Shown: one piece after another, positions 1 to 63,107 of the stretch | Position numbering within the stretch: position 1 is the first letter of the stretch | Layout of the letters: the number at the start of each line of letters is the position of its first letter | From: an uncultured Candidatus Saccharibacteria bacterium | GTDB lineage: Bacteria > Patescibacteriota > WWE3 > UBA101185 > UBA10185 | Length of the DNA: 64,000 bases | Assembly: GCA_964387275.1 (NCBI GenBank) | Contig: CAYLVW010000001.1 | Span: forward strand, 355,508-419,507 | Direction: 5' to 3' | Translations under genes and position numbers: made by a program | The notes under the pieces: model-generated | The model's input: the letters and a program-made list of their open reading frames with translations, nothing else | Databases searched by the model: none | Told to the model about the DNA's origin: nothing

Positions 1-901
1 GCATATCGTCCCAATTCTTTCTTTTTTAATTGCTCGACTTGTTGCATATACACTTGTGGGATTTGTACTTGGTGCTTTGGGATCAGTAGTTCAACTTTCA
101 TTATCAATGCGAATAATATTACAACTTGCAGTTGGTGTATTTATGCTAGGCACTGCCTTTAATCTTCTATACTTGCACCCGTTTTTTAGATATTTTGTTA
201 TCCAGCCCCCAAAATCCTTTGCAAAAATAGTGAAGGATCAGTCAAAAAGTAAAAAAATATTTGCCCCTGCTTTGTTAGGCGCAATGACTGTGCTTATACC
301 TTGTGGAGCTACTCAAGCAATGATGGCATATGCTATTTCGACTGGTTCACTAATTTCGGGTGGTGTAACAATGTTTGTGTTTATACTAGGAACCTCTCCC
401 TTATTTTTTATTCTTGGGTATGTACTTAAAAAAGCTAGGGAATCCGCTTTTTTTGGTTTTAACAAAATTGCATCTGCGGCAATTATTTTAGTTGCAATTT
501 ACAACATAAGCGGTGCTGTAGCTTTAACTGGTACAAAATGGACTTTTGAAAATATTGCTAAATCTATAAATTGTTCAATCAGCTTTTGTGATAACTCAGC
601 GTCATCAAATTTAGTAACAACAAAAACGGTTAATGAAGCGACTATTTATATAGAACAATCTGGGTACAGTTCAAGCCCCAGTGTCATTTATATAAAGGCG
701 GGATCTAGTGTTAAATTAAATTTAGTAAATAGAAGTGGTGCAGGATGTATTCAAGCATTCACAATTCCCAAACTAAATATTCAGCAAGTAATACCTATTG
801 GAAGTTCGACTACTTTAGAATTTGTTGCTCCAAATGAACGAGGACCTTTAGCATTTATGTGTAGTATGGGTATGTATAGAGGAGTGATAAACGTAATTTA
901 A
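1..901 (+). CDS. Multi-pass membrane protein (TauE/SafE- or DsbD-like core with PCGATQAMMAYA motif) fused to a C-terminal cupredoxin-like domain (FMCSMGMYRG); 5' end truncated by window edge
   Basis: Reading frame is open from nt 2 to stop at 901. Hydrophobic helices dominate the N-terminal part. The C-terminal ~90 aa is beta-rich with Cys/Met residues resembling a cupredoxin-like metal site. First gene of a metal-related operon. Confidence 0.45.
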   Translation, partial: HIVPILSFLIARLVAYTLVGFVLGALGSVVQLSLSMRIILQLAVGVFMLGTAFNLLYLHPFFRYFVIQPPKSFAKIVKDQSKSKKIFAPALLGAMTVLIPCGATQAMMAYAISTGSLISGGVTMFVFILGTSPLFFILGYVLKKARESAFFGFNKIASAAIILVAIYNISGAVALTGTKWTFENIAKSINCSISFCDNSASSNLVTTKTVNEATIYIEQSGYSSSPSVIYIKAGSSVKLNLVNRSGAGCIQAFTIPKLNIQQVIPIGSSTTLEFVAPNERGPLAFMCSMGMYRGVINVI

Positions 902-906
902 CGATT

Positions 907-1119
907 ATGCAAACTGTAACATTAAAAATCATAGGAATGCATTGTACAAGTTGTGCAATAAATATTGATCTGGAACTTGAAGAACTAAATGGTGTTGGCG
1001 AATCAGTTACTAGTTATGCCAAGATGGTGACAAAAGTTTCTTATGACTCAAATATAGTTAAATTGGAAAAAATTGTAGAAGTACTTAATTTATTAAAATA
1101 TGAGGTTAAATTGTTATGA
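907..1119 (+). CDS. copZ: Heavy-metal-associated (HMA) copper chaperone, CopZ-like
   Basis: 70 aa with the canonical GMHCTSC (GMxCxxC) metal-binding motif near the N-terminus. Its 3' end overlaps the next gene by 4 nt (ATGA). Confidence 0.8.
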   Translation: MQTVTLKIIGMHCTSCAINIDLELEELNGVGESVTSYAKMVTKVSYDSNIVKLEKIVEVLNLLKYEVKLL

Positions 1120-2066
1120 ATACCGATAAGAAATTTATATTAGGAATTGCCGCTTTTACAGCATTAGTTTTTGTTGGAATTATTTTTCTAGCCAACAAAA
1201 CGACTACAACACAGAATGGAGAAACCGTTCTTCCTGAAGATAAAAAGGAGCTTTTGAAAATTGCATCTGACGATTGGATAAAAGGAAATAAGGAAGCTAA
1301 AGTTGTAATAGTTGAATATTTAGATTTTGAATGCGAAGCGTGCGGAGCATATTATCCATTAGTTAAACAGCTATCAGAAGAATATAAAGACGATTTAGCA
1401 ATTGTGACTAGATATTTTCCATTACCCGGGCATAAAAATAGTATGACTTCTGCCACCGCTGTCGAGGCTGCAGGCAAACAGGGTAAATATTGGGAAATGT
1501 TCAATATTTTGTTCGACCATCAAAAGATTTGGGGTGAAAAACAAAGTCCAGATCCTGCTATATTCGAAGGATATGCTCAACAAATTGGTTTAAACATGGA
1601 TCAGTTTAAAAAAGACGTTGTATCCCAGGAAGTTAAAGATAGGGTTAATCGGGATAAAAGTTCTGGTATAAAGCTTGGAGTATCAGGAACACCTTCATTC
1701 TATCTAAATGGAAATAAAATCCCAAATCCCAAAGGACCTGATGACTTTAAATCCTTCATACAAGCCGAGATTTCTAAAACAACTAGTACTAAAACAACTA
1801 GTACTAAAACGGAGGTACAGCTTTATAGTAAAGATGATATTGCCCAGCATAACTTAGAAACAGACTGTTGGATGGCTATAGAGGGTAAAGTATATAATGT
1901 TACAGACTTTGTCGGTAAACACCCAGGTGGTAAGGCAATAATTAATGGTTGTGGTATAGATGCAACAGCATTGTTTAATGAACGCCCTACTAATAATAAA
2001 GGACCCCACCCTGACCAAGCGAAAGAGCTTCTTAAGGAATTTTATATTGGCGATCTTAAGTTGTAA
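1116..2066 (+). CDS. Fusion protein: N-terminal TM anchor + DsbA-like thioredoxin domain (CEAC active site) + Thr/Ser-Lys repeat linker + C-terminal cytochrome b5-like heme-binding domain
   Basis: The thioredoxin-fold region carries YLDFECEACGAY. The TTSTKTTSTKT linker comes from a direct DNA repeat at 1787-1812. The C-terminal LYSKDDIAQHNLETDCWMAIEGKVYNVTDFVGKHPGG matches the cyt b5 heme-binding signature (HPGG). Confidence 0.6.
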   Translation: MNTDKKFILGIAAFTALVFVGIIFLANKTTTTQNGETVLPEDKKELLKIASDDWIKGNKEAKVVIVEYLDFECEACGAYYPLVKQLSEEYKDDLAIVTRYFPLPGHKNSMTSATAVEAAGKQGKYWEMFNILFDHQKIWGEKQSPDPAIFEGYAQQIGLNMDQFKKDVVSQEVKDRVNRDKSSGIKLGVSGTPSFYLNGNKIPNPKGPDDFKSFIQAEISKTTSTKTTSTKTEVQLYSKDDIAQHNLETDCWMAIEGKVYNVTDFVGKHPGGKAIINGCGIDATALFNERPTNNKGPHPDQAKELLKEFYIGDLKL

Positions 2067-2085
2067 TAATTTTATAAGGATATGT

Positions 2086-2730
2086 ATGAATGAAAAAATG
2101 ACAGGCGAACAAACAAATTTAGAGCCTTCCAAATCAAGACGATTTGTATCTATTAAAAATAGAAAGATATTAGTAGCACTAATGCTATTAGGTGCTTTTA
2201 TAGGATTCGCTTTTTATTATAAGGGTGTCTTTGTTGCGGCCACGGTAAATGGAAGTCCTGTAACTAGGCTAAGTGTAATAATGGAACTAGAAAAGCAAGG
2301 AGGGAAAAATACACTAGATGCCCTTATTACCGAGAAGCTAATTGATAATGAGGCTAGAAAGAAAGAAGTTGTTGTAACCAACGATGAGATTGATCAAGAA
2401 ATTAAAAAAATAGAAGCATCAATTACACAACAGGGCGGTACACTTAATGACGCGTTACTACAACAAGGTATGACTTTGGATTCATTGAAGAAACAATTGT
2501 CTGTTCAGAAAAAAATTGAGAAAGTTTTGTCCGATAAGATACAAGTAATTGACGACGATATTTCAAAATATATTTCAGACAATAAAATTGAATTAGAATC
2601 AGGTAAAGAAACTGAAACAAAAAACCAAATAGCCCAACAGCTAAAAGGACAAAAGCTAAATCAGGAAGCATCTTCGTGGATAAATTCACTCAAAGCTGGC
2701 GCCAAAATCAACTACTATGTAAATTATTGA
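2086..2730 (+). CDS. Membrane-anchored SurA-N-like periplasmic chaperone domain protein
   Basis: Start chosen at the MNEKMTGEQ ATG at 2086, which has an AAGGA RBS. The longer ORF from 1960 overlaps the upstream gene. One TM helix followed by a SurA N-terminal-like helical region (LIDNEARKKEVVVTNDEIDQEIKKIEA). Confidence 0.45.
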   Translation: MNEKMTGEQTNLEPSKSRRFVSIKNRKILVALMLLGAFIGFAFYYKGVFVAATVNGSPVTRLSVIMELEKQGGKNTLDALITEKLIDNEARKKEVVVTNDEIDQEIKKIEASITQQGGTLNDALLQQGMTLDSLKKQLSVQKKIEKVLSDKIQVIDDDISKYISDNKIELESGKETETKNQIAQQLKGQKLNQEASSWINSLKAGAKINYYVNY

Positions 2731-2765
2731 TCGTATATGCATAAGGCATGAAGTAAAATAGAAAT

Positions 2766-4667
2766 ATGCTTGTTTATGAATTACTAAAAAATACGAAATT
2801 TAAAAGGTTGGCTTTAACATTGCTTCTGGTTATTCCGTTTGAAGTATTGTCTCTTTTTTCGATTCATTTACCCCAGTTTATTGAGATAGCAGTTTTCAGT
2901 ATTATAATGCTTATCTTTGGTAAAAATGTAATTATTAACGGTCTAAGAAGCCTCATGCACCTAAATTTTTCTAATATAAATCTGCTAATGACAATTGCAG
3001 TATTTGGAGCTCTATATTTAGGGGAGTTAGAAGAGGCTGTTATTATTATTGTTCTTTTTGCCATAAGTGAGACATTAGAAGAGTTTGGTATTCGCAAAAG
3101 TCAAAACTCACTTGAGGAACTTGTTAAAAAAACTCCGAAAACGGCACTCATAAAAGGTCATGATGATAAAACACCTATTGAAAATATATCTGTCGGGGAG
3201 ATCCTTGTAGTAAAGCCAGGCGATTATATTCCTCTGGATTGTGTAGTTGTAGAAGGGAACTCATTAGTTGATGAGAGTACAATAACAGGCGAACCTTTAC
3301 CCAAAAGCAAATTTCCAGGTGAATTGGTATATGCAGGAACACTTAATACCCAGGGATATTTAGAAATCAGAGTTATCAAGGTTTCAAAAGATACTACTTT
3401 AGCTAAGATTGTGGAATTAACATTCCAATCTATAGAAAAAAAGTCACGTGCCACTAAATTTATTGAGAATTTTGCACTTTACTACACACCTACAATAATT
3501 GTCATTGCAACTTTACTAACAATAGTTCCTTTTTTTGTTTTCGGACAACCTTTTACTGTCTGGTTTACGCAAAGTCTTACAGTTCTGCTAATTGCGTGTC
3601 CTTGTGCTTTAGTCATTTCAACACCAATAACAATATTCTCTGCAATTGGGAATGCTACTAAAAGAGGCGCTTTAGTAAAAGGTGGTCAATTTTTAGAGGA
3701 AATGGGGAAAATAAGAGCCATAGCTTTTGATAAAACGAGAACCTTAACTAAAGGAGAGCCTCTCGTATCTGATATTGTTACTTTCGATGGGGTTTCAAAA
3801 GAAGAGCTGCTTAATTGTGTTGCCGGTGCTGAATCTCTTTCTGAACACCCTATTGCGAAAAGTATTGTTGAAAGAGCAAATACCGTAGATGGAGAAAATC
3901 ACTCATACTCAAACTTTAAATCCGTTATGGGTAAAGGTATTAGTGGGGAATGTTTAGTTTGCGTTGATAAACACCACTGCATAGGTACTTTGGAATACAT
4001 TATGGAAGAACATAAAGTTGACACCAAAGTAATAGAAATAGTTGAGAAATTTGAAAAAGAAGGTAAGACAGCGATTGTAATTAGTTCTAATAAGCACATT
4101 GAGGGAGTTATTGGTGTTACTGATACGATTAGAAGTGAAAGTAAACAAATTGTAATGGACTTAAATAAACTCGGAGTAACTTCCATCATGCTTACTGGAG
4201 ATAATGCGTCGGCAGCTGCGTATGTGTCAAAAGAAGTTGGTATTAGTGAGTTTTATGCCAAGCTTCTACCTGATGAGAAAGTTTCAAATTTATTAGAATT
4301 GGTCAGAAAATATAAAAATGTTGCGATGGTTGGAGATGGCGTGAATGATGCTCCTGCCCTTGCAACTGCTTCAGTCGGTATTGCAATGGGTGCTGTTGGA
4401 TCGGATGTAGCTATTGAAAACGCAGATATAGCATTGATGAACAATAATTTAAGCCTACTACCATTTTTGATTAGTCTTGGTAGAAAAGCTATAAGGACTA
4501 TTAAGTTAAACACTACTTTGGCAATTGGAGTAAAACTGTTTTTCCTATTTTTTGCGCTGATTGGAAAAGGTAATCTTGCCTTAGCCATATTTGCTGACGT
4601 TGGTGTTACTTTACTAGTAGTGGCAAATAGTTTGAAATTATTTAATTATGATATGGAAACAAAATAG
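2766..4667 (+). CDS. P1B-type heavy-metal translocating P-type ATPase (Cu+/Zn2+/Cd2+ type, CPC motif), without N-terminal HMA domain
   Basis: CPC in CPCALVIS of TM6, DKTRTLT phosphorylation motif, TGDN, and GDGVNDAPAL hinge. 633 aa. Confidence 0.85.
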   Translation: MLVYELLKNTKFKRLALTLLLVIPFEVLSLFSIHLPQFIEIAVFSIIMLIFGKNVIINGLRSLMHLNFSNINLLMTIAVFGALYLGELEEAVIIIVLFAISETLEEFGIRKSQNSLEELVKKTPKTALIKGHDDKTPIENISVGEILVVKPGDYIPLDCVVVEGNSLVDESTITGEPLPKSKFPGELVYAGTLNTQGYLEIRVIKVSKDTTLAKIVELTFQSIEKKSRATKFIENFALYYTPTIIVIATLLTIVPFFVFGQPFTVWFTQSLTVLLIACPCALVISTPITIFSAIGNATKRGALVKGGQFLEEMGKIRAIAFDKTRTLTKGEPLVSDIVTFDGVSKEELLNCVAGAESLSEHPIAKSIVERANTVDGENHSYSNFKSVMGKGISGECLVCVDKHHCIGTLEYIMEEHKVDTKVIEIVEKFEKEGKTAIVISSNKHIEGVIGVTDTIRSESKQIVMDLNKLGVTSIMLTGDNASAAAYVSKEVGISEFYAKLLPDEKVSNLLELVRKYKNVAMVGDGVNDAPALATASVGIAMGAVGSDVAIENADIALMNNNLSLLPFLISLGRKAIRTIKLNTTLAIGVKLFFLFFALIGKGNLALAIFADVGVTLLVVANSLKLFNYDMETK

Positions 4668-7341: not shown

Positions 7342-8622
7342 ATGGAACAAGAACTCAAATACTGCCTATATGCAAGAAAAAGCTCAGAATCAGACGAAAG
7401 GCAGGCAATGTCCATTGAGAGCCAGATCAAGGAAATGTCTGCAATTATCAAACGAGACAAGTTAAATGTAGTTGATATTAGGCAAGAAAGTCATTCCGCT
7501 AAGGTTTCTAGTGCTAGGCCCGTATTCAACCAATTAATCGATGATTTAAAGAAAGGTGAGTTTAACGCTATTTTAACTTGGGCACCAGATCGAATGTCAC
7601 GTAACGCAGGCGATTTAGGCTCTTTAGTCGACTTAATGGATAGTGGCAAACTTGCACAAATTAAAACGTATTCACAGGTTTTTACGAACAATCCAAACGA
7701 AAAGTTTTTATTAATGATACTTTGTTCACAGGCAAAACTGGAAAATGATAACAGAGGTTTAAACGTGAAACGTGGTATCAGAAACAAATGTGAATTGGGT
7801 TGGAGACCCTGCATGCCCCCGCTTGGATATCACAGTAGAGCTATAGATGGGGTAAAAGACATAGTTATTGATCCGATTCGTGGACCTTTAATAAAAGAGC
7901 TCTTTGAGCTAATAGCTTTAGTTGGTATGAGCGGAAGATCCGCAAGAAAGATGCTTTACAAAGAGAAAAACTTTAAGACCAGAAACGCTAAAGATATAAC
8001 TTTGAGTATGGTTTATAAAATTCTTCGCAACCCCTTTTATTATGGCCAATTTGAGTATCCAGTAGGAAGCGGTACTTGGTATAAAGGAAAACACGAACCA
8101 TTAATAACTAAAGAGATATTTGATAAGGTACAAGATCGTTTAGAAATCCCAGAAAAAGCGAAATGGAGATCGAAAAACTTTGCATTTACAAGAATGATTC
8201 ATTGTGGTGAATGTGGAACCATAATTGTCGCTGAGGAAAAATTTAGGAATCTTCTCGATGGAACGAAACGAAAGCATGTTTACTATCATTGTGGTAGACC
8301 AAAAGACGACAGGGAATGTCACCAACCATATCTATCCGAAGACGAATTAGTAAGTCAGCTTATCGAGATCGTGGATACTGTAAAACTTGATTCAAAGGAA
8401 ATGGGAAAGAAGATTAAGCAAGAGTTCGATAGGTATCAGACTTTCGGGAATTTAATCCTAGATGATCACTCTGAAAAAATGCCAGAGTTTAATCACACGA
8501 TTGATATTTCAACCTTTGCTAAACACATCCTAAAAGTAGGGTCTAGTGACGAAAAACGAGAAATCCTTAACCTGATGAAAACCAAGTTTCTATTGAAAGA
8601 TCGTCGAATTACACTTAGCTGA
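7342..8622 (+). CDS. Large serine recombinase (resolvase/invertase-type catalytic domain + recombinase domain + zinc ribbon)
   Basis: The N-terminal YARKSSESDERQAMSIESQ matches the serine-recombinase catalytic motif. A central recombinase domain is present, and CGECGT...HCGRP gives a zinc ribbon. Typical of phage or integrative-element integrases. Confidence 0.75.
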   Translation: MEQELKYCLYARKSSESDERQAMSIESQIKEMSAIIKRDKLNVVDIRQESHSAKVSSARPVFNQLIDDLKKGEFNAILTWAPDRMSRNAGDLGSLVDLMDSGKLAQIKTYSQVFTNNPNEKFLLMILCSQAKLENDNRGLNVKRGIRNKCELGWRPCMPPLGYHSRAIDGVKDIVIDPIRGPLIKELFELIALVGMSGRSARKMLYKEKNFKTRNAKDITLSMVYKILRNPFYYGQFEYPVGSGTWYKGKHEPLITKEIFDKVQDRLEIPEKAKWRSKNFAFTRMIHCGECGTIIVAEEKFRNLLDGTKRKHVYYHCGRPKDDRECHQPYLSEDELVSQLIEIVDTVKLDSKEMGKKIKQEFDRYQTFGNLILDDHSEKMPEFNHTIDISTFAKHILKVGSSDEKREILNLMKTKFLLKDRRITLS

Positions 8623-8668
8623 TTTCAACAATCTTGCAAATTAACAATATAGGCTTCATCATTAATTA

Positions 8669-9172
8669 ATGGGAAATTTATATGTAATTGTTGGTATCGT
8701 TCTTATCTTGGGAGTTGTACTTGGCTTATTATCTTCTAAATTTGGTGAAGATATTTCCGATAAAAAACGCCAATATAAGTATCAAAAGAAAGATTACCTA
8801 TTATCTCGTGCGGAACATCAGTTTTTTGATGTTTTAGTTGATGCATTAGGTGACCACTACTACGTCTTCCCTCAAATTCATTTAATTACTTTACTCGATC
8901 ACAAAATAAATGGACAGAATTGGAGAGGGGCTTTTAGGCATATTGACGAGAAGTCAGTAGATTTTGTGATTTGTGATAAAAGTTATATAAAACCATTAGT
9001 TGCAATAGAGCTGGATGATAAGTCTCATGGAACTGAGAATAGGATCGAAAGAGACGAAGAAGTAAAAAGGATTCTACAAGATGCAGGGGTACCCTTGTTA
9101 CGTTTCGAAAACCATGGAAGTTTTGATAAAGAAGAAATAAAAAATCGTATTATTAATGCTTTAGGAAAGTAA
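8669..9172 (+). CDS. DUF2726/NERD-like restriction-endonuclease-fold protein with N-terminal TM helix
   Basis: VDFVICD...IELDDKSHGTENRIERDEEV fits a D-(E/D)xK nuclease-like core, as seen in DUF2726 proteins. Confidence 0.35.
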   Translation: MGNLYVIVGIVLILGVVLGLLSSKFGEDISDKKRQYKYQKKDYLLSRAEHQFFDVLVDALGDHYYVFPQIHLITLLDHKINGQNWRGAFRHIDEKSVDFVICDKSYIKPLVAIELDDKSHGTENRIERDEEVKRILQDAGVPLLRFENHGSFDKEEIKNRIINALGK

Positions 9173-9376
9173 CTTCATAAAATTAGTAGCCATATAGCGA
9201 TAGAAAAGGCTGTGTAGAACACTGGTATTTGCCCTATACCCATACGGTCTAGAACCGGCACCCTCAATAAGACTATTTAATAAAAAAACGATGATAAATA
9301 AGGATAACCCATTACGGTCATCTGGAACATTGGGACTTGCCTATAACCACCTGAGTAGGGTGGAACAATGAGATTC

Positions 9377-9451
9377 TGGTGACCCTACGGAGAATCGAAC
9401 TCCGATTGCCAGGATGAAAACCTGGCGTCCTAACCATTAGACGATAGGGCC
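9377..9451 (-). tRNA. tRNA-Glu (anticodon UUC), CCA encoded
   Basis: The reverse complement folds as GGCCCTA / D-arm / CCAGG-TTTTCAT-CCTGG / GGAGTTCGATTCTCC / TAGGGTC-A-CCA, giving anticodon TTC. Confidence 0.85.
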
Positions 9452-53499: not shown

Positions 53500-53596
53500 C
53501 TTTTACCACTAAAAAAGTAAATCAACTCATTTCTTAGTTAAAACCTGACTCCACCAAGTAGACATTCAACCTAATGTTATAATATCAGTGGTTTTT

Positions 53597-53683
53597 TGCC
53601 AGAGTGGTGAAATTGGTAGACACGCAGTCTTCAGACGGCTGTATCCGCAAGGATGTATGGGTTCAAATCCCTTCTCTGGCACC
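53597..53683 (+). tRNA. tRNA-Leu (anticodon CAG), long variable arm, CCA encoded
   Basis: GCCAGAG / TGGTGAAATTGGTAGACACG / CAGTC-TTCAGAC-GGCTG / variable arm TATCCGCAAGGATGT / ATGGGTTCAAATCCCTT / CTCTGGC-A-CCA. Confidence 0.85.
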
Positions 53684-53825
53684 AAGTCACTTAACGAATG
53701 AAATGAGATTAGTGAATTGGGGTGCAAAGCCACCAAGTCACTTAACGAATGAAATGAGATTAGTGAATTGGGGTGCAAAGCCACCAAGTCACTTAACGAA
53801 TGAAATGAGAATAGTAAATTAGATT
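53679..53825 (+). repeat. Tandem direct repeat, 3 copies of a ~51-nt unit (third truncated and diverged), first copy beginning inside the tRNA-Leu(CAG) CACCA 3' end
   Basis: Unit CACCAAGTCACTTAACGAATGAAATGAGATTAGTGAATTGGGGTGCAAAGC. The unit contains an imperfect internal hairpin. Translated as identical 17-aa repeats by the ORF track on both strands. Confidence 0.8.
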
Positions 53826-53937
53826 GTAAAACCATTAAATATTCACATCAATTTTTAGAGAAACAAGAAATAACCTATAATAATATAAGGGATTTTGCAC
53901 CAATCTGTGTTAAAATCATCAAGTTCAGGAGAGAAAA

Positions 53938-54318
53938 ATGGCCATACCTTTGGATATCCTAAAAGCTCTTACCAGAGTAGTCAGTGAATCTAAAGAACTT
54001 GAACTAGATAAGGTATTTCTAATTAGACTATCAAGACGCTTCGCAGGTAACGGGGAAATTAGCTTGGATGCTCTATATGAGATTGTCAAAAAATATCTTG
54101 AAAAGATGGCGTACCAGAAACTTCCTATAAGGCAGCAAATAATCCTAACCCTTGCTGCAATAAATACCGTAAGCTATGTATTTAATGGGGAGGGGGTAAA
54201 AGGTCCTGATAAGATTGACCTAGATTACCGTGCAATCTATGTAGTATTGGAAATTCCTGAGTATACAGCCTACGATTTCTTTAGAACACTGGGCAATAGT
54301 ATGAATAGATTTAACTAA
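53938..54318 (+). CDS. Hypothetical protein, paralog A of a 4-member tandem family (~120-126 aa)
   Basis: Strong RBS AGGAGAGAAAAATG. Shares the core Q(Q)xILxLxAI(N/G)T(V/L)...DL(D/E)(F/Y)...(I/V)xxFY with the three ORFs at 54702-55839. Confidence 0.45.
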   Translation: MAIPLDILKALTRVVSESKELELDKVFLIRLSRRFAGNGEISLDALYEIVKKYLEKMAYQKLPIRQQIILTLAAINTVSYVFNGEGVKGPDKIDLDYRAIYVVLEIPEYTAYDFFRTLGNSMNRFN

Positions 54319-54463
54319 TACCTAGATATTCAAAGTAACCTAGATGTAAGGTAAGTGTAGTCACTATCAAATACAACTCGTTTGGGACCCAAAGTAGAAA
54401 AACTGCCTTGGGTCCTTTTTTGATTTCAGAAATAGTTAGTTTTATAGTATAATTCCATGGTTT

Positions 54464-54550
54464 GGGCGAGTGGCGGAATTGGTATACGCGCAACGTTGAG
54501 GTCGTTGTCGAGTAAAATCGGTGCAGGTTCAAGTCCTGTCTCGCCCACCA
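54464..54550 (+). tRNA. tRNA-Leu (anticodon GAG), long variable arm, CCA encoded
   Basis: GGGCGAG / TGGCGGAATTGGTATACGCG / CAACG-TTGAGGT-CGTTG / variable arm TCGAGTAAAATCGGTGC / AGGTTCAAGTCCTGT / CTCGCCC-A-CCA. A TATAAT -10 lies at about 54448. Confidence 0.85.
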
Positions 54551-54630
54551 AGTCACTTAGCGAATGAAATGAGATTAGTGAATTGGGGTGCAGAGCCACC
54601 AAGTCACTTAGCGAATGAAATGAGCTAGTG
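54546..54630 (+). repeat. Tandem direct repeat (1.7 copies) of the same 51-nt unit as at 53679, again starting at the CACCA 3' end of a tRNA-Leu
   Basis: Unit CACCAAGTCACTTAGCGAATGAAATGAGATTAGTGAATTGGGGTGCAGAGC differs from the first-locus unit at 2 of 51 positions. Confidence 0.75.
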
Positions 54631-54701
54631 TAACTATGTATAAATAGCCGGGTCGTAGACTCGGTTTTTTTGTTGGCCAAACAAGCGAAAATACCTCAAA
54701 T

Positions 54702-55082
54702 TTGTTACAATGTGCCAAGACGTGGAGGGACAAGATGACGTTGGAAGAGGCAATTTTACTTATAGGAACAGCTTCTACAGTAATTGAACTACCAAGAAGA
54801 ACTGCTTTTTCTATAGCACATTACTTTTCGGATGGCACCTTAACACACTTTAAAATAGACCTTGAACTACTGGAGCGTAGAATTGCAGAAATGCATTTTA
54901 AAGCACTGCCTAAAGATGACCAAATGATTCTTACTGTTTGTGCAATTAACACTCTAGTAACGCATGATTCTACGTATATGCTAGATTTTGATGTAGCTGC
55001 TGAGGTTCTGGGTGTTAAATATGAAAGTATCCCTATGTTCTATGAACATTTAAGACTTTATGTAGAAGCGAACCCTAATTAA
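54702..55082 (+). CDS. Hypothetical protein, paralog B of the tandem family
   Basis: LPKDDQMILTVCAINTLVTHDSTYMLDFDVAAEVLGVKYESIPMFYEHL aligns with paralogs A, C and D. Confidence 0.45.
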   Translation: MLQCAKTWRDKMTLEEAILLIGTASTVIELPRRTAFSIAHYFSDGTLTHFKIDLELLERRIAEMHFKALPKDDQMILTVCAINTLVTHDSTYMLDFDVAAEVLGVKYESIPMFYEHLRLYVEANPN

Positions 55083-55444
55083 TGAACGGCTGGCATGTGA
55101 AATTCACCTCATCATTAATTCTATTTCTTTCTACTGAAAAAGACTTGGCTGACTTCCATGCTAGAGATATTGTTTATTTCTTCTCAAGAAGAGCACTACA
55201 GACAATAAACCTAAAAGATATCATCGAGTTTATTGAGCAGTTTGGGTACCAGGATCTGTCTCCACAGCAACAACTTATCCTGATTTTGTGTGCCATTGGA
55301 ACTGTTGACGCAAATGCAACTAAGCAGGATTTGGAGTTTAATATTGCAGCTCAAATAATGAATGTAAGAGTGAGTGTTATTTCCTTGTTCTATAAGAGAG
55401 TTGTGCAAAAAATAAGCGCTAGCTTCACAGGTTCTATAAATTAG
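55082..55444 (+). CDS. Hypothetical protein, paralog C of the tandem family
   Basis: LSPQQQLILILCAIGTVDANATKQDLEFNIAAQIMNVRVSVISLFYKRV. Start overlaps the upstream stop (TAATG). Confidence 0.45.
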   Translation: MNGWHVKFTSSLILFLSTEKDLADFHARDIVYFFSRRALQTINLKDIIEFIEQFGYQDLSPQQQLILILCAIGTVDANATKQDLEFNIAAQIMNVRVSVISLFYKRVVQKISASFTGSIN

Positions 55445-55476
55445 TTACAAACAAAAAACCAAAAGGGAGAAGAGTC

Positions 55477-55839
55477 ATGACACCAAGCTTAAGTGATAAG
55501 GCACTTGCTAAGGCTAAGGCTATCGTTTCTGAATCATTGAATCTAAGGTCCACTGATCTCAATTTTATGAGTATGCTGGGAGTTTCGATTTTCTTATTTA
55601 TTAAAGGCGTTAGAGACGTAGAAACTATGGAGACTCACATTCGAGATTCATTGTCAGACATCGAAATTAGCGAAGAAGATAAACTTGCTTTGATCTTGGC
55701 CGTATTTGTTTGCATTGAAGACGAGATATTCTACCTAGATTTTACTGTAGCCTCTAAGCACTGTAACTGTGATCTTGAGGCAGTTAAAGAACTTTATAGT
55801 AGACTAAAAAGACCAGGTATTACTTACATGAGTAACTAA
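55477..55839 (+). CDS. Hypothetical protein, paralog D (most divergent) of the tandem family
   Basis: ISEEDKLALILAVFVCIEDEIFYLDFTVASKH...LYSRL. RBS AAAGGGAGAAGAGTCATG. Confidence 0.4.
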   Translation: MTPSLSDKALAKAKAIVSESLNLRSTDLNFMSMLGVSIFLFIKGVRDVETMETHIRDSLSDIEISEEDKLALILAVFVCIEDEIFYLDFTVASKHCNCDLEAVKELYSRLKRPGITYMSN

Positions 55840-55845
55840 TAGAAA

Positions 55846-56175
55846 ATGCTGTCTTTTCTCACAGACACTACTTTTGTTGGAAACTCCTTGTCTTTTGTGG
55901 TTATTGCATTAGGCATAATCATGGGGATCATTAGTTTGCTTGATATTATTAAATGCCTTGGCATTATTAATGATAAAAACAACATGTACAGATTTCTTAG
56001 TCGTGAAAAAGCAAAACTTGCACTGGTCAGAAATCTATATTGGTTTGGTATTAGTGTTGCTCTGATAACACTTGGCTATCTTGGTGTTATTGCTCTTATT
56101 TGCTTGTGGCTGGTTAGCTATGCAAAGACTAGATTGGCTATTTCACAAAATGCGAATAAGGGTAGTAAAAGTTAG
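55846..56175 (+). CDS. Small membrane protein (3 TM)
   Basis: Hydrophobic ORF, followed by a terminator. Confidence 0.35.
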   Translation: MLSFLTDTTFVGNSLSFVVIALGIIMGIISLLDIIKCLGIINDKNNMYRFLSREKAKLALVRNLYWFGISVALITLGYLGVIALICLWLVSYAKTRLAISQNANKGSKS

Positions 56176-56203
56176 TGGCGTTGTTCTAGGCTGTGGCCGG
56201 GAT

Positions 56204-56235
56204 TTTTGTACCCAAAAATCCCGGCCCTTTTTGTT
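56204..56235 (+). terminator. Rho-independent terminator
   Basis: GGCCGGGATTTTT...AAAAATCCCGGCC hairpin followed by CTTTTTGTT. Confidence 0.6.
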
Positions 56236-56406
56236 ATCAAAAACAGCAATTGAAAAAAACTACTACACACGATATAATGCCTTGGTTGGAAAAGCTTATG
56301 GGGAAGCTCTAAAACTTGCTTTATTAGCAAATGTATAAGTACCTTCTCCAGATTTTTTCGTTTGCGAGTTGTGACCTTACCAAGCACTCGCAATCCTTAC
56401 ACTCTT

Positions 56407-56481
56407 GCGAGAGTAGATCAGTGGTAGATCGTCTCCTTGCCAAGGAGAAGGCCGCGGGTTCGAACCCCGTCTCTCGCTCCA
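56407..56481 (+). tRNA. tRNA-Gly (anticodon GCC), CCA encoded
   Basis: GCGAGAG / TAGATCAGTGGTAGATCG / TCTCC-TTGCCAA-GGAGA / AGGCC / GCGGGTTCGAACCCCGT / CTCTCGC-T-CCA. Confidence 0.85.
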
Positions 56482-56710
56482 AATAAAACTTTCCTACACA
56501 GCAACTACTCATAAACATCTCTTATTTTATTAGATAGACAATTAAATACTACAGGTAACCTATTTAAACTAGTTTGCTACTTATTCGCATAAATCTAACT
56601 CAAAAAAACAAATCTGCTATTGTATTTAGCTAAGGTGTATGTTTTTATATCTTCTGCTTTTGTGTTAGTATCCAATCATCGAAGTCAGGAATGGTAGGGA
56701 AGAGACAAAA

Positions 56711-56959
56711 ATGCTTTCCTTGGCAGTGTTTCCTGGAATAATATCGGAACTTACGTTGTGGCTAGGTCTAATAACTTTTTCGACTGGAATAGTATTGATT
56801 ATATTCAGCTTGGGTCAAAAGTTAGATCTTGGAGTAAAGATACTGGGTGCCGGTATTCTTATTAGTATACTTGGCTTTCTCATAATACTTGCGGGATGGA
56901 TATTATTTCTAGGGTTACTTCTGACTCCAATTGTTTTTTGGGTTGGGGATCGTTTGTAA
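56711..56959 (+). CDS. Small membrane protein (2-3 TM)
   Basis: 82-aa hydrophobic ORF. Confidence 0.3.
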   Translation: MLSLAVFPGIISELTLWLGLITFSTGIVLIIFSLGQKLDLGVKILGAGILISILGFLIILAGWILFLGLLLTPIVFWVGDRL

Positions 56960-56996
56960 AACTTATTATTTACAATATACGTTTTTAATACAGGTA

Positions 56997-57033
56997 GAGG
57001 CAGGAAATTTTTTCCTAAAAATTTCCTGCCTCA
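56997..57033. terminator. Perfect 15-bp hairpin between convergent genes (bidirectional terminator candidate)
   Basis: GAGGCAGGAAATTTT / AAAATTTCCTGCCTC with a short loop. It lacks a long U-run on the plus side. Confidence 0.45.
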
Positions 57034-58272: not shown

Positions 58273-58459
58273 CTCTTTTTAGTCGACCCCAGCTCGGCGC
58301 CGTCGCGCCTGCGCCTTTCGATTCCTCGCGTTACATATGAAGGATCCCGCCAGCACCTCACTTCATTTGTTACTAACGGGGTCCTTCATGGTGGCAAATC
58401 GTCGCTTAAGCACCTATTGCACCCCATTCTACTAAATTCGCTTTGCTCATTAAGTATTA

Positions 58460-58535
58460 TGGTGGAGCAGGTGGGAGTCGAACCCACATAGCCGGTTTTT
58501 CAGACCGGTGCCGTGACCACCTTGGCTACCGCTCC
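58460..58535 (-). tRNA. tRNA-Phe (anticodon GAA), CCA encoded
   Basis: The reverse complement folds as GGAGCGG...CCGGT-CTGAAAA-ACCGG...GTGGGTTCGACTCCCAC-CTGCTCC-A-CCA. An extended -10 TGGTATAAT lies upstream on the minus strand at about 58553-58561. Confidence 0.8.
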
Positions 58536-58697
58536 ACGAAAGTAACTTTGAGATTATACCAGATACCTCAACACTGAAAAAGAAAAAAACAACAATCTAC
58601 AGTCTAGGTTTTACCTCCTAAGTTAGAACTCCATGCTCCTCAATATGAAAATAAAAAGCACCCATGGTGAAGATTGTTCCCCATGGGTGCTATAAAT

Positions 58698-60098
58698 TTA
58701 CTCTGCGCTAGAAAGGAAAAGGCTAAGATCCGGGATCAACACGCGATCCAAGACACCAATATCCTGACCAAACACAGACATAGCCGTATCTCTATCCGCA
58801 TACTTAAGCCTCATTGCAGCAAGGTAGTAACTAAGACCACTGCCTTTACCAGGCTCATAGGCATAGTAAAAACCCGTATTGTATTGCCCAGACCCCATAA
58901 CAGCAAGCAGATTGCTGGCAGTAACAACATTGTCGTAAGTAACATCACCAATGGTGACAAATCTTACACCACCGCCGTCACCAATATCAATAACGTCCTC
59001 GCTAGTGGACTGAGTAATACTTCCGATATCCCCAATACCATGAACAGCAAGAATGACGTCATCGTATGCACCACGCCTAAGACCTGCATACAAAGTAGCA
59101 GGGTTATCGGCATACTCTCTGGTACTCAGAAGGTCAGCGGTGACCTTATTATCAGTAAAGATATAAAGCGCACTACCCACCGGTGAAACCTTAGACGACA
59201 AAATCACCAAATAGTAAGTCTTGTCTCCAAGCAGCCAAGTAACATTGCTCAATGCACCATCACCAATGAAAGAGGTATTGGGCTGCCTGCCCCAAAAGTT
59301 CCTATACTCAAACATAATAGAGCCGTAAGCGTTTCCACCTTGGTACAACTTCATTCCGGTCTGCCGACCAATGAACTCTGAAAGTGAGTCCTGATCAACA
59401 CCCTTGAAGTTAGGCACAATATTAGTGCTCATGGCTGAAGACAGTAAGTCTCTTACCTGCACAGCAGGAGTACCGTTAGCTTCCCAGAAACCCCATTCCA
59501 AGTAGTCTCTTGGGAGGATACTCTCAAAATTCTCAGTCCAAATCGCATAGCCACCTAGATCCAACTCTCTTCGTCCAGGACCCCACTTCTCAACATATTG
59601 AATTTGAGTGAGTTTCAGAGTGTCCCCAACACGGTTGTAGATCAAAAAAACATTGGATCTATCAATAACATACCCAGTATAACCAGGACGAAGCTGGAAA
59701 AGACTCGCACTCTCAAACCGAGCGTTAATCATACCTGCGATATCATTCTCGTTAAAATCCTGATAATAAATGATATCCAGCTCGGAATTATCCCAAGCTC
59801 CCCATTTAACAGACTGCATAGTGCCTTTAACAAAAGTCGAGTCGGGATAAAAGACTGTCCCAACCTCAGTAGCTGTTTCACCAGCGCCGTCGCCATTTTC
59901 ACGATAAGCGACATCAAAAGTAGGTGAAGTAATAGACATAATCTGGCTATCACCAACCTTAAGCTGAGAAATAGTCATAATGTTCTTACCTCCAACAGGA
60001 GGAGGAACAGGAACGTTTCCCTCAACAAAAAGGCTACACGAGGTAAGAGTAAGGCTCAAAACGGTAGCAAACACTGCCTTCAAGCGATGTGATTTCAT
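58698..60098 (-). CDS. Large secreted lipoprotein-like hypothetical protein
   Basis: Signal peptide with lipobox-like LTSC. 466 aa. Confidence 0.4.
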   Translation of the reverse strand: MKSHRLKAVFATVLSLTLTSCSLFVEGNVPVPPPVGGKNIMTISQLKVGDSQIMSITSPTFDVAYRENGDGAGETATEVGTVFYPDSTFVKGTMQSVKWGAWDNSELDIIYYQDFNENDIAGMINARFESASLFQLRPGYTGYVIDRSNVFLIYNRVGDTLKLTQIQYVEKWGPGRRELDLGGYAIWTENFESILPRDYLEWGFWEANGTPAVQVRDLLSSAMSTNIVPNFKGVDQDSLSEFIGRQTGMKLYQGGNAYGSIMFEYRNFWGRQPNTSFIGDGALSNVTWLLGDKTYYLVILSSKVSPVGSALYIFTDNKVTADLLSTREYADNPATLYAGLRRGAYDDVILAVHGIGDIGSITQSTSEDVIDIGDGGGVRFVTIGDVTYDNVVTASNLLAVMGSGQYNTGFYYAYEPGKGSGLSYYLAAMRLKYADRDTAMSVFGQDIGVLDRVLIPDLSLFLSSAE

Positions 60099-60176
60099 CA
60101 GCTTTCTCCTTCGCGTGACATTATATCCTATAGGGTTATTTTGGACAACTTTCGCTTATAAGTACTGGAAAATGGA

Positions 60177-60875
60177 CTATTTTGCCATTAAATGCTGCTT
60201 TTCGAACTGAGGCAAGTGTTCTATTGCGTATCGTAAGGTAGTTCTAGCCATTTTTGATTTATTCTTTTTAAGATATTTAATGAGGGCTGGCGTGGAAACT
60301 CTTTTTCCGGCCTCTCTAAGTAACCATCCCACCGCTTTATGAACTAGATCTTCTTTATCCAAAAGTAGAAGGTCAGCAATTTCGTAGGTACGGAGATCTT
60401 CTCCATTCATAAGATGGTGAAATGTAGACACAATGGAAATTCTACGCTCCCATAGGGATTTGGATCTGGCGAGTTTGTTAAGAATTTCTTCATTATTCTT
60501 ATACACGTGTGCACCTACAATTTGCCTTGCGCTAAGATCTACCAAATCCCAATTATTAACATATTTAATATTTCTCATATAGGTCTTGTAAGTAAGGTCA
60601 GGATTTTCTTTATATTTTTCAACAAGTAGGAGAAGGGCACAAAGCCTTACTTCGTGAAATTCGTTATCTAACAGTTTCTCAATTTCATAAATGTGGATGT
60701 CTTGTTTTGTACTACTTACCAACTTTCTAATAATAGGTACTGTAATACCTAAAAACTTATCCCCATAACCATATTGACCAGGATTGGTCTTAAAAAACCA
60801 CTGAGAGGTTTTAGCTCTAGTGGGATCTTTTAGTCTTAATAATTTATTAAGAAGTTCCTTATGATTCATAATCAT
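60177..60875 (-). CDS. DNA alkylation repair enzyme family protein (AlkC/AlkD-like HEAT-repeat glycosylase)
   Basis: N-terminal DPTRAKTSQWFFKTNPGQYGYGDKFLGITVPIIRKL matches the DNA_alkylation family. Confidence 0.6.
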   Translation of the reverse strand: MIMNHKELLNKLLRLKDPTRAKTSQWFFKTNPGQYGYGDKFLGITVPIIRKLVSSTKQDIHIYEIEKLLDNEFHEVRLCALLLLVEKYKENPDLTYKTYMRNIKYVNNWDLVDLSARQIVGAHVYKNNEEILNKLARSKSLWERRISIVSTFHHLMNGEDLRTYEIADLLLLDKEDLVHKAVGWLLREAGKRVSTPALIKYLKKNKSKMARTTLRYAIEHLPQFEKQHLMAK

Positions 60876-60953
60876 ATTATACAGTGCTAAAACTTCCTAA
60901 ATTTGTAAAAACTTGGTAATATACACAAAGTTTGCAGTCAGTATTGTGTCTAG

Positions 60954-61029
60954 GGCGGTTAGCTCAGCTGGTCAGAGCATTCGGTTTACATCCGAAAGGT
61001 CATAGGTTCGAACCCTATACCGCCCACCA
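60954..61029 (+). tRNA. tRNA-Val (anticodon UAC), CCA encoded
   Basis: GGGCGGT / TAGCTCAGCTGGTCAGAGCA / TTCGG-TTTACAT-CCGAA / AGGTC / ATAGGTTCGAACCCTAT / ACCGCCC-A-CCA. Confidence 0.85.
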
Positions 61030-61260
61030 ATAAATTGACTAGAAAATATCTTTCCTATCTGAAAAATCATAGATCAAAAAGCTAGGTTTCCTATCAAGTT
61101 GCATTATGAATAACTAAGCTTAGTGAATCACTGTATAAAACTACCCTTATAAAGGGTAAATATTAACTCAACATAAATTAACATTTTTTCAATTCAAAAA
61201 GAGATCAATTAATACTAAAAAAGATCTCAAGAGTTTTATCTCGTTGAGATCTTATAGATC

Positions 61261-61632
61261 CTAACATTCACCAAGAACACGACCATTATACATACCAAGT
61301 TGTATCAAGGTAGTTTTTAGGCGGACGGGTGTTACAGTAAGAGGGAGTCTTGAAAAAACATACGGCATTCTCCCATCTACTTTATATTCAAATACGTTCA
61401 CCAAATCAAAGGACGCAACCACTGCAGCAAGTGCTCTAATATCCCGAGTGTTTCCTATGACAACAGTGCGAACACTCCTATCAAAAATCTCATTGGTCGC
61501 AATCCTATCACTAAAAAGTGGCCTTGTTTGCCAATCTATAACTGCAAGTAAGTCTGTAGGTCTTCTAAACAAAGCATCCATTGCTGCATGAAGATTTCTA
61601 GTTGGTATTAAAACAAGCTGAAGCGGATCCAT
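61261..61632 (-). CDS. Hypothetical protein
   Basis: Start taken at MDPLQ, which has an AGGAGGG RBS. Confidence 0.3.
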   Translation of the reverse strand: MDPLQLVLIPTRNLHAAMDALFRRPTDLLAVIDWQTRPLFSDRIATNEIFDRSVRTVVIGNTRDIRALAAVVASFDLVNVFEYKVDGRMPYVFSRLPLTVTPVRLKTTLIQLGMYNGRVLGEC

Positions 61633-61747
61633 TGAATCCCTCCTTTGACTAATATTGCCTCTCTTAAAGAAATAGTACAACTAATATTGTGGCATCGCAA
61701 TTAAAAAGACCAAACCCCCATTTTGATAATTTGCCCATAATATATGG

Positions 61748-62092
61748 TTAGTAGAGTTCCTTGGTAACTTCAAGTTCAAAACCCGAAGCGGCTAGATAAC
61801 GACTAACATAAGTATAGCTAAGCATAGTAGACATCCAATATGTCGTATGATGCATCTTTATCTCAGGCATTGAACCATAAGAGACATTAAGAACAAGTGA
61901 TGCAAGCATAAGCAATGTACTAGTAGTAAAATATACAGCGCTATCACCAATCTCCGGAGCACAACTTGCACCCTCGAAAATATGCATAATTGAAGCGGGT
62001 TTAGTTACTACAACAAGCTCATTGCCTAAAGTTAAAGCGTCAACAATATCCTTTAGTGTATATTCGTTCCCGTGAAGCAACATTGTCTTCAT
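61748..62092 (-). CDS. Hypothetical protein
   Basis: 114-aa ORF with no recognisable motifs. Confidence 0.3.
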   Translation of the reverse strand: MKTMLLHGNEYTLKDIVDALTLGNELVVVTKPASIMHIFEGASCAPEIGDSAVYFTTSTLLMLASLVLNVSYGSMPEIKMHHTTYWMSTMLSYTYVSRYLAASGFELEVTKELY

Positions 62093-62147
62093 GACCTCTC
62101 CTTGAATTTTGGAATTATACTACTATTAATCTAAATATAAAATTGTT

Positions 62148-63107
62148 TTAGTGCCCAACTAATACTGTAATAAATTTCCCAACTTTTTGTGCAATTAACT
62201 CAAACTCTTCTTGATTTGTATTTTCGGATAGTAAACAAACAACAGCGGTTCCAGAAACACCCGAAGCTACCCCACAATCATGATAAGTACCAATATCCGT
62301 ACCTATTTTATGAGAAAAATCTATTTCCCCATCAATCCCAATATCTAGTCTATTATCGAAATCAGTACTATCTAATAATTCCAGGATATACGCTCCAGAG
62401 TTCTTAGCCAATATACTACTTTTAATAATGGTATCAAATACTAAAACACCGTCTTCTGGAGATAAAAAGTTTTTATTGAAATAATCAGGAGATACCCCAA
62501 TAGCTTTAAATGTATCTGATATAGCAGGCCACCCTAAAACCCTGAGCAAAATATTTTGAGCAGTATTATCAGATTTTTTTAATAATTTACTTAAAACCTC
62601 GTCTATTGTATACACAGAGCCGAATTCCCCTCGATTTATATCCCCAGTACCTTCTGAATAATCTGAGGCTAAATACACTATAGTATCACCCATACTAAGA
62701 TTTCCTTCCTCAAGCTCCAGTAAAGTAGCTATCGCAATAGGGGTTTTAAATAGGGAAGCACCATAAAACAGTTTGCCTTCATTAAAATAGTAAGAAAGTG
62801 AAGTATCATAGGTACCATCAAAACTCCAATCTCCTGATTTATGAAGATTTGGATAGTATTTAATGAACAAACCGTATCTTCCATTTGTAGAAATAACGAC
62901 ATCTTTAACGCCATTAAACTCCGAGTCAAAATTTACTTCTTCTATAGATGGGTTATTTAAACTATCAGAAATAATTCTCGGACTATTCAAAGTATAAGAT
63001 GAGACAATCGTATTAAATTCTTGGTTTGTTTTTTGGGTTGAAAAATATATACCTAACAAAATTAACGCAAAAATAAGTATAAAAGAAAAACCGTACCAAA
63101 ATTTCAT
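62148..63107 (-). CDS. Class A beta-lactamase-like serine hydrolase with N-terminal TM anchor
   Basis: SxxK (ASLFKTP), SDN (KKSDNTAQN) and KxG-like HKIGTD motifs in the right order and spacing. Confidence 0.6.
   Translation of the reverse strand: MKFWYGFSFILIFALILLGIYFSTQKTNQEFNTIVSSYTLNSPRIISDSLNNPSIEEVNFDSEFNGVKDVVISTNGRYGLFIKYYPNLHKSGDWSFDGTYDTSLSYYFNEGKLFYGASLFKTPIAIATLLELEEGNLSMGDTIVYLASDYSEGTGDINRGEFGSVYTIDEVLSKLLKKSDNTAQNILLRVLGWPAISDTFKAIGVSPDYFNKNFLSPEDGVLVFDTIIKSSILAKNSGAYILELLDSTDFDNRLDIGIDGEIDFSHKIGTDIGTYHDCGVASGVSGTAVVCLLSENTNQEEFELIAQKVGKFITVLVGH

Follow-up and report, generated by a model that had tools for sequence, protein, structure and literature searches.

Tandem repeats behind two tRNA-Leu genes

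We analysed a 64-kb stretch of the genome of an uncultured Saccharibacteria bacterium, in which two tRNA-Leu genes are each followed by tandem copies of a 51-nt unit that starts where the tRNA ends. A row of small genes, here called A to D, is interleaved with these repeats. The whole stretch is referred to as the window; positions are those of the stretch, and all counts given for the window cover its 64 kb. Each full unit, which we call the trailer unit, contains an imperfect hairpin (P1) followed by a putative second helix (P2) that includes a terminal CACCA.

The first of the two genes, tRNA-Leu(CAG), occupies 53598–53684 on the plus strand according to ARAGORN and Rfam (tRNA score 49.4 bits), one base away from the position given in the original prediction. 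It ends in GGCACCA, and a TATAAT −10 box is visible upstream at 53578–53583. Unit 1 of the array behind it lies at 53685–53735 (+), with P1 at 53685–53717 and P2 plus CACCA at 53718–53735, and unit 2 at 53736–53786 (+) is identical to it at 51 of 51 positions; both score 51.1 bits with R1, a covariance model of the P1 hairpin. In unit 3 (53787–53837, +) P1 is kept (43.9 bits) and the P2/CACCA half has decayed, with G>A and C>T predominating: of its 9 differences, 2 fall in 33 nt and 7 in the last 18 nt (Fisher p = 0.006). Tandem Repeats Finder detects this array with a period of 51 nt and 2.8 copies at 53680–53820, and alignment resolves it into three full-length units (3.0 copies).

The second gene, tRNA-Leu(GAG), was found by ARAGORN and Rfam at 54464–54550 (+), as originally predicted. 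It ends in CCCACCA and is preceded by a promoter-like site at 54425–54453. Its array, 866 bp from the first, comprises one full unit at 54551–54601 (+; detected by model R1), identical to array 1 at 49 of 51 positions, and a 34-nt partial copy at 54602–54635 (+) that holds P1 only and lacks P2 (R1 33.8 bits, E = 7e-6), or about 1.65 copies in all. An intrinsic-terminator-like hairpin with a T-run at 54646–54676 (+) is predicted to close the tRNA-Leu(GAG)/trailer transcription unit.

The anatomy agrees closely with what had been read from the letters, namely 3 and about 1.7 copies with about 96% identity. CACCA is present at every junction: the arrays start at the CACCA of the tRNA, and full units end in CACCA and so regenerate it. 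A 46-nt core of the unit occurs in three copies and nowhere else in the window, where none would be expected by chance. Unit positions 10 and 43, each either A or G, are the same within an array and different between arrays, which points to local duplication or homogenisation, and the terminal copy of each array keeps P1 and loses P2. Array-specific variants and degenerate terminal copies are usual signs of local amplification or homogenisation. The two tRNA-Leu genes are 63% identical (56/89) and their first trailer units 96% (49/51). Because of this disparity, and because the unit recurs behind other tRNAs, carries a compensated hairpin and is linked to tRNA ends, the arrays are not the relic of an old segmental duplication, a point on which we concur with the original prediction.

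The unit recurs at the ends of at least five tRNA species

A third unit-bearing locus lies further along the window. The gene for tRNA-Phe(GAA) at 58460–58535 (−; ARAGORN and Rfam) ends in TCCACCA and is followed at 58389–58459 (−) by a diverged unit of 71 nt with P1 at 58427–58459 (R1 43.4 bits). The apex of this P1 has changed in a compensated manner (GA-GC-AAA-GC-GA), and P2, which ends in GCCACCA, has 20 nt inserted at its apex. In total, model R1 finds six significant copies in the window, the next best match having E = 0.5. Each of the six is on the tRNA strand and immediately follows either a tRNA CCA or another unit. The window contains 135 CACCA sites, 20 of which are intergenic; 6 of these 20 are tRNA ends, and all three unit-bearing loci are among the tRNA ends.

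We searched the 20-nt core of P1 across 185,579 species genomes. A second Saccharibacteria genome (contig L006) carries a full unit behind tRNA-Ile that is identical to the window unit at 48 of 51 positions (94%), and two tandem units behind tRNA-Ala, within the spacer of the rRNA operon before the 23S rRNA gene. The unit thus stands behind at least five tRNA species, every one of which ends in CACCA (two tRNA-Leu and tRNA-Phe in the window, tRNA-Ile and tRNA-Ala in L006). The full unit is restricted to tRNA ends at all five unit-bearing loci, three in the window and two in L006. Two other features of L006 are recorded here: its 23S rRNA gene (679–4526) is split by one or more group I introns that pass the Rfam threshold, with two weaker matches besides, and its tRNA-Ile points the other way from tRNA-Ala and the 23S gene.

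The repeats also coincide with contig ends. Short-read contigs from the same or close strains (L031 and L002) end or begin inside the trailer repeats, and the contig of a more distant relative without units (L039) terminates just past tRNA-Leu(GAG). The tRNA loci of these genomes are frequent assembly breakpoints (the end of L031 and the starts of L002, L038 and L039), and the trailer repeats explain short-read assembly breaks at tRNA genes in these genomes.

A covarying hairpin and a predicted helix that involves the CCA end

From base to tip, P1 consists of an outer stem (NCACU/AGUGN, often longer), a U.U mismatch, three base pairs, an invariant GA...GA, two base pairs and a triloop. The imperfect hairpin noticed within the unit is borne out by covariation: across 14 distinct sequences, 8 of its 12 pairs vary at both partners and pairing holds in 90% of the cells, compared with 23–43% when partners are slid, and none of 500 shuffles attains the observed score. 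The apex alternates between AU/AU and GC/GC from copy to copy, the 3-bp stem occurs as AAC/GUU, AGC/GCU and AAU/AUU, and the outer stem as CACU/AGUG and UACU/AGUA. Flanked by these covarying pairs, G12, A13, G21 and A22 are invariant. From general knowledge of RNA structure, the four residues would fit tandem sheared G.A pairs, which are possible only on the tRNA strand.

In P2, UGGGG is predicted to pair with the terminal CC(A)CCA, leaving the A bulged out. The apex of this helix may be a 5-nt loop, a 12-nt hairpin or the 20-nt insertion, and UGGG...C(C)ACCA is kept throughout.

At gathering and at permissive thresholds, Rfam (release 15) gave no match to the unit, and its only matches in the window are tRNAs; nor does any Rfam family overlap P1 at nine other loci. 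Readings of P1 or P2 as a K-turn, boxA, dif/Xer site, sigma-54 or sigma-70 promoter or tRNA remnant were dropped on inspection of the sequence, because the bulge, spacing or complementarity that they call for is absent, or because the stem covaries in a way that a linear motif would not.

P1 also occurs alone, in other phyla

Apart from the tRNA-linked unit, the exact 20-nt core of P1 is present in an alphaproteobacterial metagenome-assembled genome (MAG), in Coprococcus, a Clostridia MAG, Lachnospiraceae, a human-gut contig and several Patescibacteria other than Saccharibacteria. There it is embedded in hairpins whose outer stems differ and are compensated. P1 alone is widespread but rare. 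Of the gut and alphaproteobacterial loci, five in number, four (L004, L005, L010 and L016) have it 3' of a gene on the same strand, in some cases with a terminator-like hairpin after it; at the fifth, in the Clostridia MAG (L007), the genes on either side are on the other strand.

In the Patescibacteria outside Saccharibacteria, P1 lies between pilC and the gene for the major type IV pilin (L008, 779–812; L020, 1547–1587 and 1778–1811; L025, 233–265 and 310–324), on the opposite strand, beside a long hairpin rich in GC; the ribosome-binding site of the pilin gene follows after about 20 nt. The two copies in L020 form an inverted pair, and one of the pilC–pilin loci also carries a sense-strand variant of P1. 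In the window, copies of P1 are confined to tRNA ends and to the orientation of the tRNA; in other Patescibacteria both orientations are seen. In a further contig (L012, 6566–6598) it sits between divergent genes, upstream of one that encodes a small membrane protein.

Collections of plasmids, phages and E. coli genomes gave no match to P1 or the unit. Viral contigs gave none either; a degenerate pattern produced chance matches only, in which the pairs were broken. Streptococcus matches to the core pattern were removed, since they come from a coding region and do not fold into a hairpin. A search of literature text for the unit or core string returned only unrelated primers.

Genes A to D are independent of the repeats

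Gene A (53938–54318, +; 126 aa) lies between the two tRNA-Leu genes, with a promoter-like site at 53854–53881 and a terminator-like hairpin at about 54384–54421, as read from the sequence. Behind the second array follow B (54735–55082, +), C (55082–55444, +; 120 aa) and D (55477–55839, +; 120 aa). The start of B is most likely the ATG at 54735, giving 115 aa, and not the TTG at 54702, because the interval between these codons contains a 1-nt indel in strain variants and the gene calls also arrive at 115 aa. The four same-strand reading frames described from the letters thus all exist, and the sizes of 120–126 aa given for them fit A, C and D and, with the ATG start, not B.

Paralogy is solid for A, B and C by pairwise blastp (A–B 1.7e-6, A–C 3.5e-6, B–C 1e-11) and marginal for D, the most divergent member (C–D 5e-3; A–D and B–D not significant). 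Against a joint profile all four score about 1e-35 or better (D, 1.8e-35), in a comparison with a profile built from these same four sequences. Among 5.8 billion proteins the profile finds only A to D, and three further homologues, remote and small (2.5e-6 to 4.7e-5), come from an exhaustive hidden Markov model search of 1.84 billion representatives. A 615-aa protein matched in six stretches (P0130) was discounted as a repeat-inflated match to a Zn-ribbon protein. Searches of Pfam, PADLOC, PHROGs and PDB sequences with A to D gave no match. An AlphaFold2 model of B based on nine sequences predicts six helices in two three-helix halves (predicted local distance difference test score, pLDDT, 88.3; predicted template modelling score, pTM, 0.85); a model from six sequences had a pLDDT of 56.7 and was too poor to use. 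The proteins are possibly of the helix-turn-helix type, and no significant profile or fold match to sigma-70 region 4 or helix-turn-helix families was obtained for A to D.

A comparison of gene order separates these genes from the repeats. In a relative, L038, tRNA-Leu(GAG) is followed by three paralogs, a small membrane protein and tRNA-Gly, and further on by a metallophosphoesterase and tRNA-Phe, with no unit after any tRNA; its paralogs comprise two of the three remote homologues and a third paralog. The third homologue (L056) is a singleton with its nearest tRNA about 3 kb away and no hairpin. The window shares the arrangement of L038. Behind D lies gene E (55846–56175, +), which encodes a 109-aa small membrane protein and is not a paralog of A to D; it takes the position of the small membrane-protein gene of L038 but shows no blastp similarity to it. 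A terminator-like hairpin begins at 56195, and tRNA-Gly follows at 56407–56481. Since the array occurs without units in L038 and a family member occurs without an adjacent tRNA or hairpin in L056, the repeats and the paralogs are two independent, interleaved features. On the evidence of gene order, the array appears to be chromosomal and vertically inherited beside tRNA-Leu(GAG) and tRNA-Gly. The metallophosphoesterases of the window and L038 are 68% identical and the paralogs about 20%, which argues for fast evolution of the family; A to D are best described, as far as the structural model goes, as a fast-evolving, lineage-restricted family of small all-helical proteins.

Between strains, C differs by 12 synonymous and 1 non-synonymous changes, a pattern of purifying selection, and B by 1 synonymous and 6 non-synonymous changes. 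Divergence from L001 and L002 across 54735–56175 is mosaic, with a synonymous divergence (pS) of 0.156 for C and 0.013–0.028 for B, D and E, as might result from exchange between strains by recombination or from diversifying selection on B.

Beyond gene E, tRNA-Phe and a beta-lactamase-like gene (about 22% identical) are opposite in orientation between the window (58340–63107) and L038 (8153–11453), which suggests an inversion; the diverged tRNA-Phe trailer unit lies on the breakpoint side, between the metallophosphoesterase gene and tRNA-Phe. The segment 58000–60400 has a GC content of 0.42–0.46 and may be foreign DNA. It holds a 466-aa open reading frame (ORF) (58698–60098, −) that adjoins tRNA-Phe and has no Pfam match. 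GC skew and gene orientation flip from plus to minus at about 56–57 kb (56000–57000). A replication terminus at about 56 kb was considered and dropped, since skew tracks gene orientation elsewhere in the window too.

The window as a whole has a mean GC content of 35.8% and, by a Pfam scan of ORFs of at least 90 aa, a housekeeping gene content (TypA, LeuRS, TGT, a PilB-type ATPase, ABC transporters and others); ARAGORN and Rfam together find nine tRNA genes. The nearest named relatives of its TypA are from Saccharimonadales, WWE3 and other Patescibacteria, at 70–73% identity, pointing to a bacterium of the Candidate Phyla Radiation that is probably related to Saccharibacteria. Synteny anchored on TypA was uninformative: gene order is not kept at identities up to 78%, and the contig of a 92% relative is too short. 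A phage origin of the window was rejected, given its gene content and the one match to a phage collection, a 39-nt tRNA stretch. The only recombinase gene in the window, at 7342–8622, encodes a large serine recombinase (Resolvase, Recombinase and Zn-ribbon domains, 426 aa); together with the DUF2726 protein gene that follows, it occupies 7342–9451 and adjoins tRNA-Glu(UUC). Some 45 kb from the trailer repeats, it may mark an integrated element.

Discussion

We propose that the trailer unit is a structured RNA module derived from tRNA trailers, which either is released as a small RNA or aids processing or protection, and place the probability of this reading at roughly one half. The unit would be a compact module in the 3' trailers of CACCA-ending tRNA genes, transcribed on the tRNA strand from the tRNA promoter. 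We infer that the trailers are transcribed with their tRNAs because a promoter-like site precedes tRNA-Leu(GAG), a terminator follows its units and units of L006 lie in an rRNA spacer; those behind tRNA-Ala, being inside an rRNA operon, are necessarily transcribed. The 3'-end processing that trims the tRNA could also release 51-nt RNAs that end in CCA. With CACCA at the end of every unit, slippage or unequal recombination between the junctions could multiply the copies head to tail and homogenise them within an array. At the RNA level the unit might yield a trailer-derived small RNA, bind a protein or serve as a processing or protection signal. In that respect it would be comparable to the rtT RNA of the tyrT operon in E. 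coli and to the leuZ 3' external transcribed spacer (3'ETS).

The closest architectural parallel is the tyrT–tyrV operon of E. coli (NC_000913.3), behind which a 178-bp unit is repeated 3.1 times, each copy regenerating TCCTTCCCCCACCACCA, the 3' end of the tRNA with CCA. These repeats are annotated as the small RNA RttR with a small ORF, tpr (bioRxiv 10.1101/2024.07.17.603846). In both cases about three tandem direct repeats lie directly 3' of a tRNA on the same strand with a small ORF nearby, and the 3' end of the tRNA already belongs to the first repeat, which is why each unit regenerates the terminus including CCA. The Saccharibacteria unit differs in its length (51 nt versus 178 nt) and in the stretch shared with the tRNA (CACCA, 5–7 nt, versus 19 nt), in standing behind several tRNAs (two Leu, Phe, Ile and Ala) in several genomes, and in containing a hairpin that other phyla carry on its own. 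The Rfam RtT model (RF00391) recovers four copies in E. coli with the same library and has no match at E ≤ 10 in 53500–54750. The unit resembles RtT in architecture and, by sequence comparison, is neither a homologue nor a member of that family.

A second parallel is 3'ETS-leuZ, a functional 53-nt trailer RNA of E. coli that acts as a small-RNA sponge (PMC8166272). Like the trailer RNA predicted here, it is about 50 nt long, and its sequence immediately follows a tRNA-Leu gene with which it is co-transcribed. Unlike the 51-nt unit, it is single-copy and base-pairs with RyhB and RybB, and the two share no sequence similarity.

Several observations weigh against an RNA module. The alignment used for P1 covariation was seeded with the exact 20-nt core, a biased sampling, and among its 168 P1 cells there is no G-U pair, which is unusual for an RNA helix. 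The outer pairs of P2 never vary, and covariation therefore neither supports nor refutes this helix. Minimum free energy folding of the array is no better than that of shuffled sequences (z = −0.9), and the same is true of single units; this is expected where non-canonical pairs, which the method does not model, dominate, and it provides no positive evidence either. Antisense targets of the unit did not exceed chance, and the idea of an antisense regulator was dropped. Finally, P1 lies on the strand opposite to the pilin genes at the pilC–pilin loci, where a role as RNA would need antisense transcription. The puzzle of P1 orientation and the absence of G-U pairs leave room for a role at the level of DNA.

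In our ranking the main rival is a hairpin-based DNA element: a miniature mobile or amplifying element, similar to repetitive extragenic palindromic (REP) or REPIN sequences or to derivatives of IS200/IS605, whose P1 and P2 would be recognised as single-stranded hairpins by an HUH/Y1 enzyme acting in trans. Insertion 3' of CACCA would recreate the target with the CACCA at the right end and so generate head-to-tail arrays. Such an origin would account for the CACCA on both sides of each array, resembling a target-site duplication or regenerated target, and for near-identical units behind unrelated tRNAs in two genomes. It would also suit a P1 that occurs in either orientation relative to genes, including the inverted pair in L020, and that often adjoins intergenic terminators, as REP elements do. 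The pairing itself agrees: P1 has no G-U pairs, and its one C.A mismatch (L005) would be G.U on the other strand. We also take the P1 apices GCGAAGC and GCAAAGC to resemble very stable DNA mini-hairpins.

The likeness to REP, BIME and REPIN sequences and to IS200/IS605-derived elements, all short, imperfectly palindromic, amplifying intergenic hairpins near terminators in both orientations, has limits. No gene for a Y1 transposase, RAYT or TnpB lies in the window, the unit has no terminal inverted repeats, and viral contigs, phages and plasmids hold no match. REP-type hairpins are normally species-specific, whereas the 20-nt core of P1 is identical across phyla. All five unit-bearing loci are tRNA CCA ends, and none is another intergenic CACCA site. 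On balance, we consider a DNA element possible but unlikely.

A related proposal, to which we give slightly less credence, takes P1 as a cross-phylum structured nucleic-acid motif that in Saccharibacteria has been joined to a helix mimicking and sequestering the CCA of tRNA, making a self-propagating module that colonises tRNA 3' ends. It could spread by transposition of single-stranded DNA beside CACCA, or by copying at the level of RNA primed or templated at CCA termini. Small RNAs ending in CCA, with some part in the biology of tRNA 3' ends, might then arise from the arrays.

It is improbable, in our judgement, that the unit is a functionless by-product, in which a trailer that happened to hold another CACCA was copied by slippage and then passed from one nearby tRNA-Leu locus to the other by gene conversion. 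The CACCA microhomology at every junction, the 866-bp distance between the arrays, the decay of terminal copies and the higher identity within than between arrays are all as slippage and conversion would leave them. They do not account for a 94% identical unit behind a different tRNA in another genome, for recognisable units behind tRNA-Phe and tRNA-Ala, or for the compensatory changes in P1, the retention of P1 even in decayed terminal copies and the conservation of its core across phyla.

The original prediction had offered tandem att-site scars of an integrative or cassette-like system targeting tRNA 3' ends, with A to D as its cargo, among its explanations, and this we now consider highly improbable. 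It rested on repeats that begin in a tRNA 3' end, with small genes of no assigned function between them, and the serine recombinase at 7342–8622 might be added in its favour. As in tRNA-targeting integrative elements, the sequence of the tRNA 3' terminus recurs as a direct repeat beyond the gene. Unlike in such elements, however, only 5–7 nt of the tRNA are duplicated, tandem copies have no cargo between them, and the neighbours are syntenic in a relative without repeats. The scan of ORFs of at least 90 aa with Pfam finds no integrase or transposase within about 45 kb, and the GC content of the A–D region (0.36–0.40, against the window mean of 0.358) is normal. A B–C–D-like array with its small membrane-protein gene and tRNA-Gly is kept in L038, which lacks the units, and the L056 family member stands singly, with no adjacent tRNA. 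Conversely, the units behind tRNA-Phe in the window and behind tRNA-Ile and tRNA-Ala in L006 have no cargo after them.

Equally remote is a type III toxin–antitoxin-like locus of repeat RNA antitoxin, terminator and small protein toxins B to D, since the order of promoter, repeats, terminator and small genes at 54425–55839 resembles ToxIN-type loci but no PADLOC, Pfam or PHROG match to ToxN, AbiQ, CptN or any defence family was found, units occur without such genes and genes without units (L006, L038 and L056), and the modelled all-helical fold of A to D would depart from the mixed alpha/beta fold of the ToxN endoribonuclease.

The unit therefore appears, from its sequence, to be a different, undescribed family whose architecture resembles the tRNA-distal, CCA-regenerating repeats of tyrT/rtT. 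It would provide a second, unrelated example of this type of repeat, from the poorly understood Saccharibacteria of the Candidate Phyla Radiation (CPR), and behind at least five tRNA species. Genes A to D add a family that, in the model, folds confidently into helices and has no solved or annotated relatives. P1, with its U.U mismatch and tandem G.A pairs, is not in Rfam, and 20 nt of it are identical in Alphaproteobacteria, Clostridia and Patescibacteria; it is a candidate for a new RNA or single-stranded DNA motif, possibly with a widely conserved binding partner. A unit that ends like a mature tRNA may also offer a handle on tRNA 3'-end processing in bacteria with reduced genomes.

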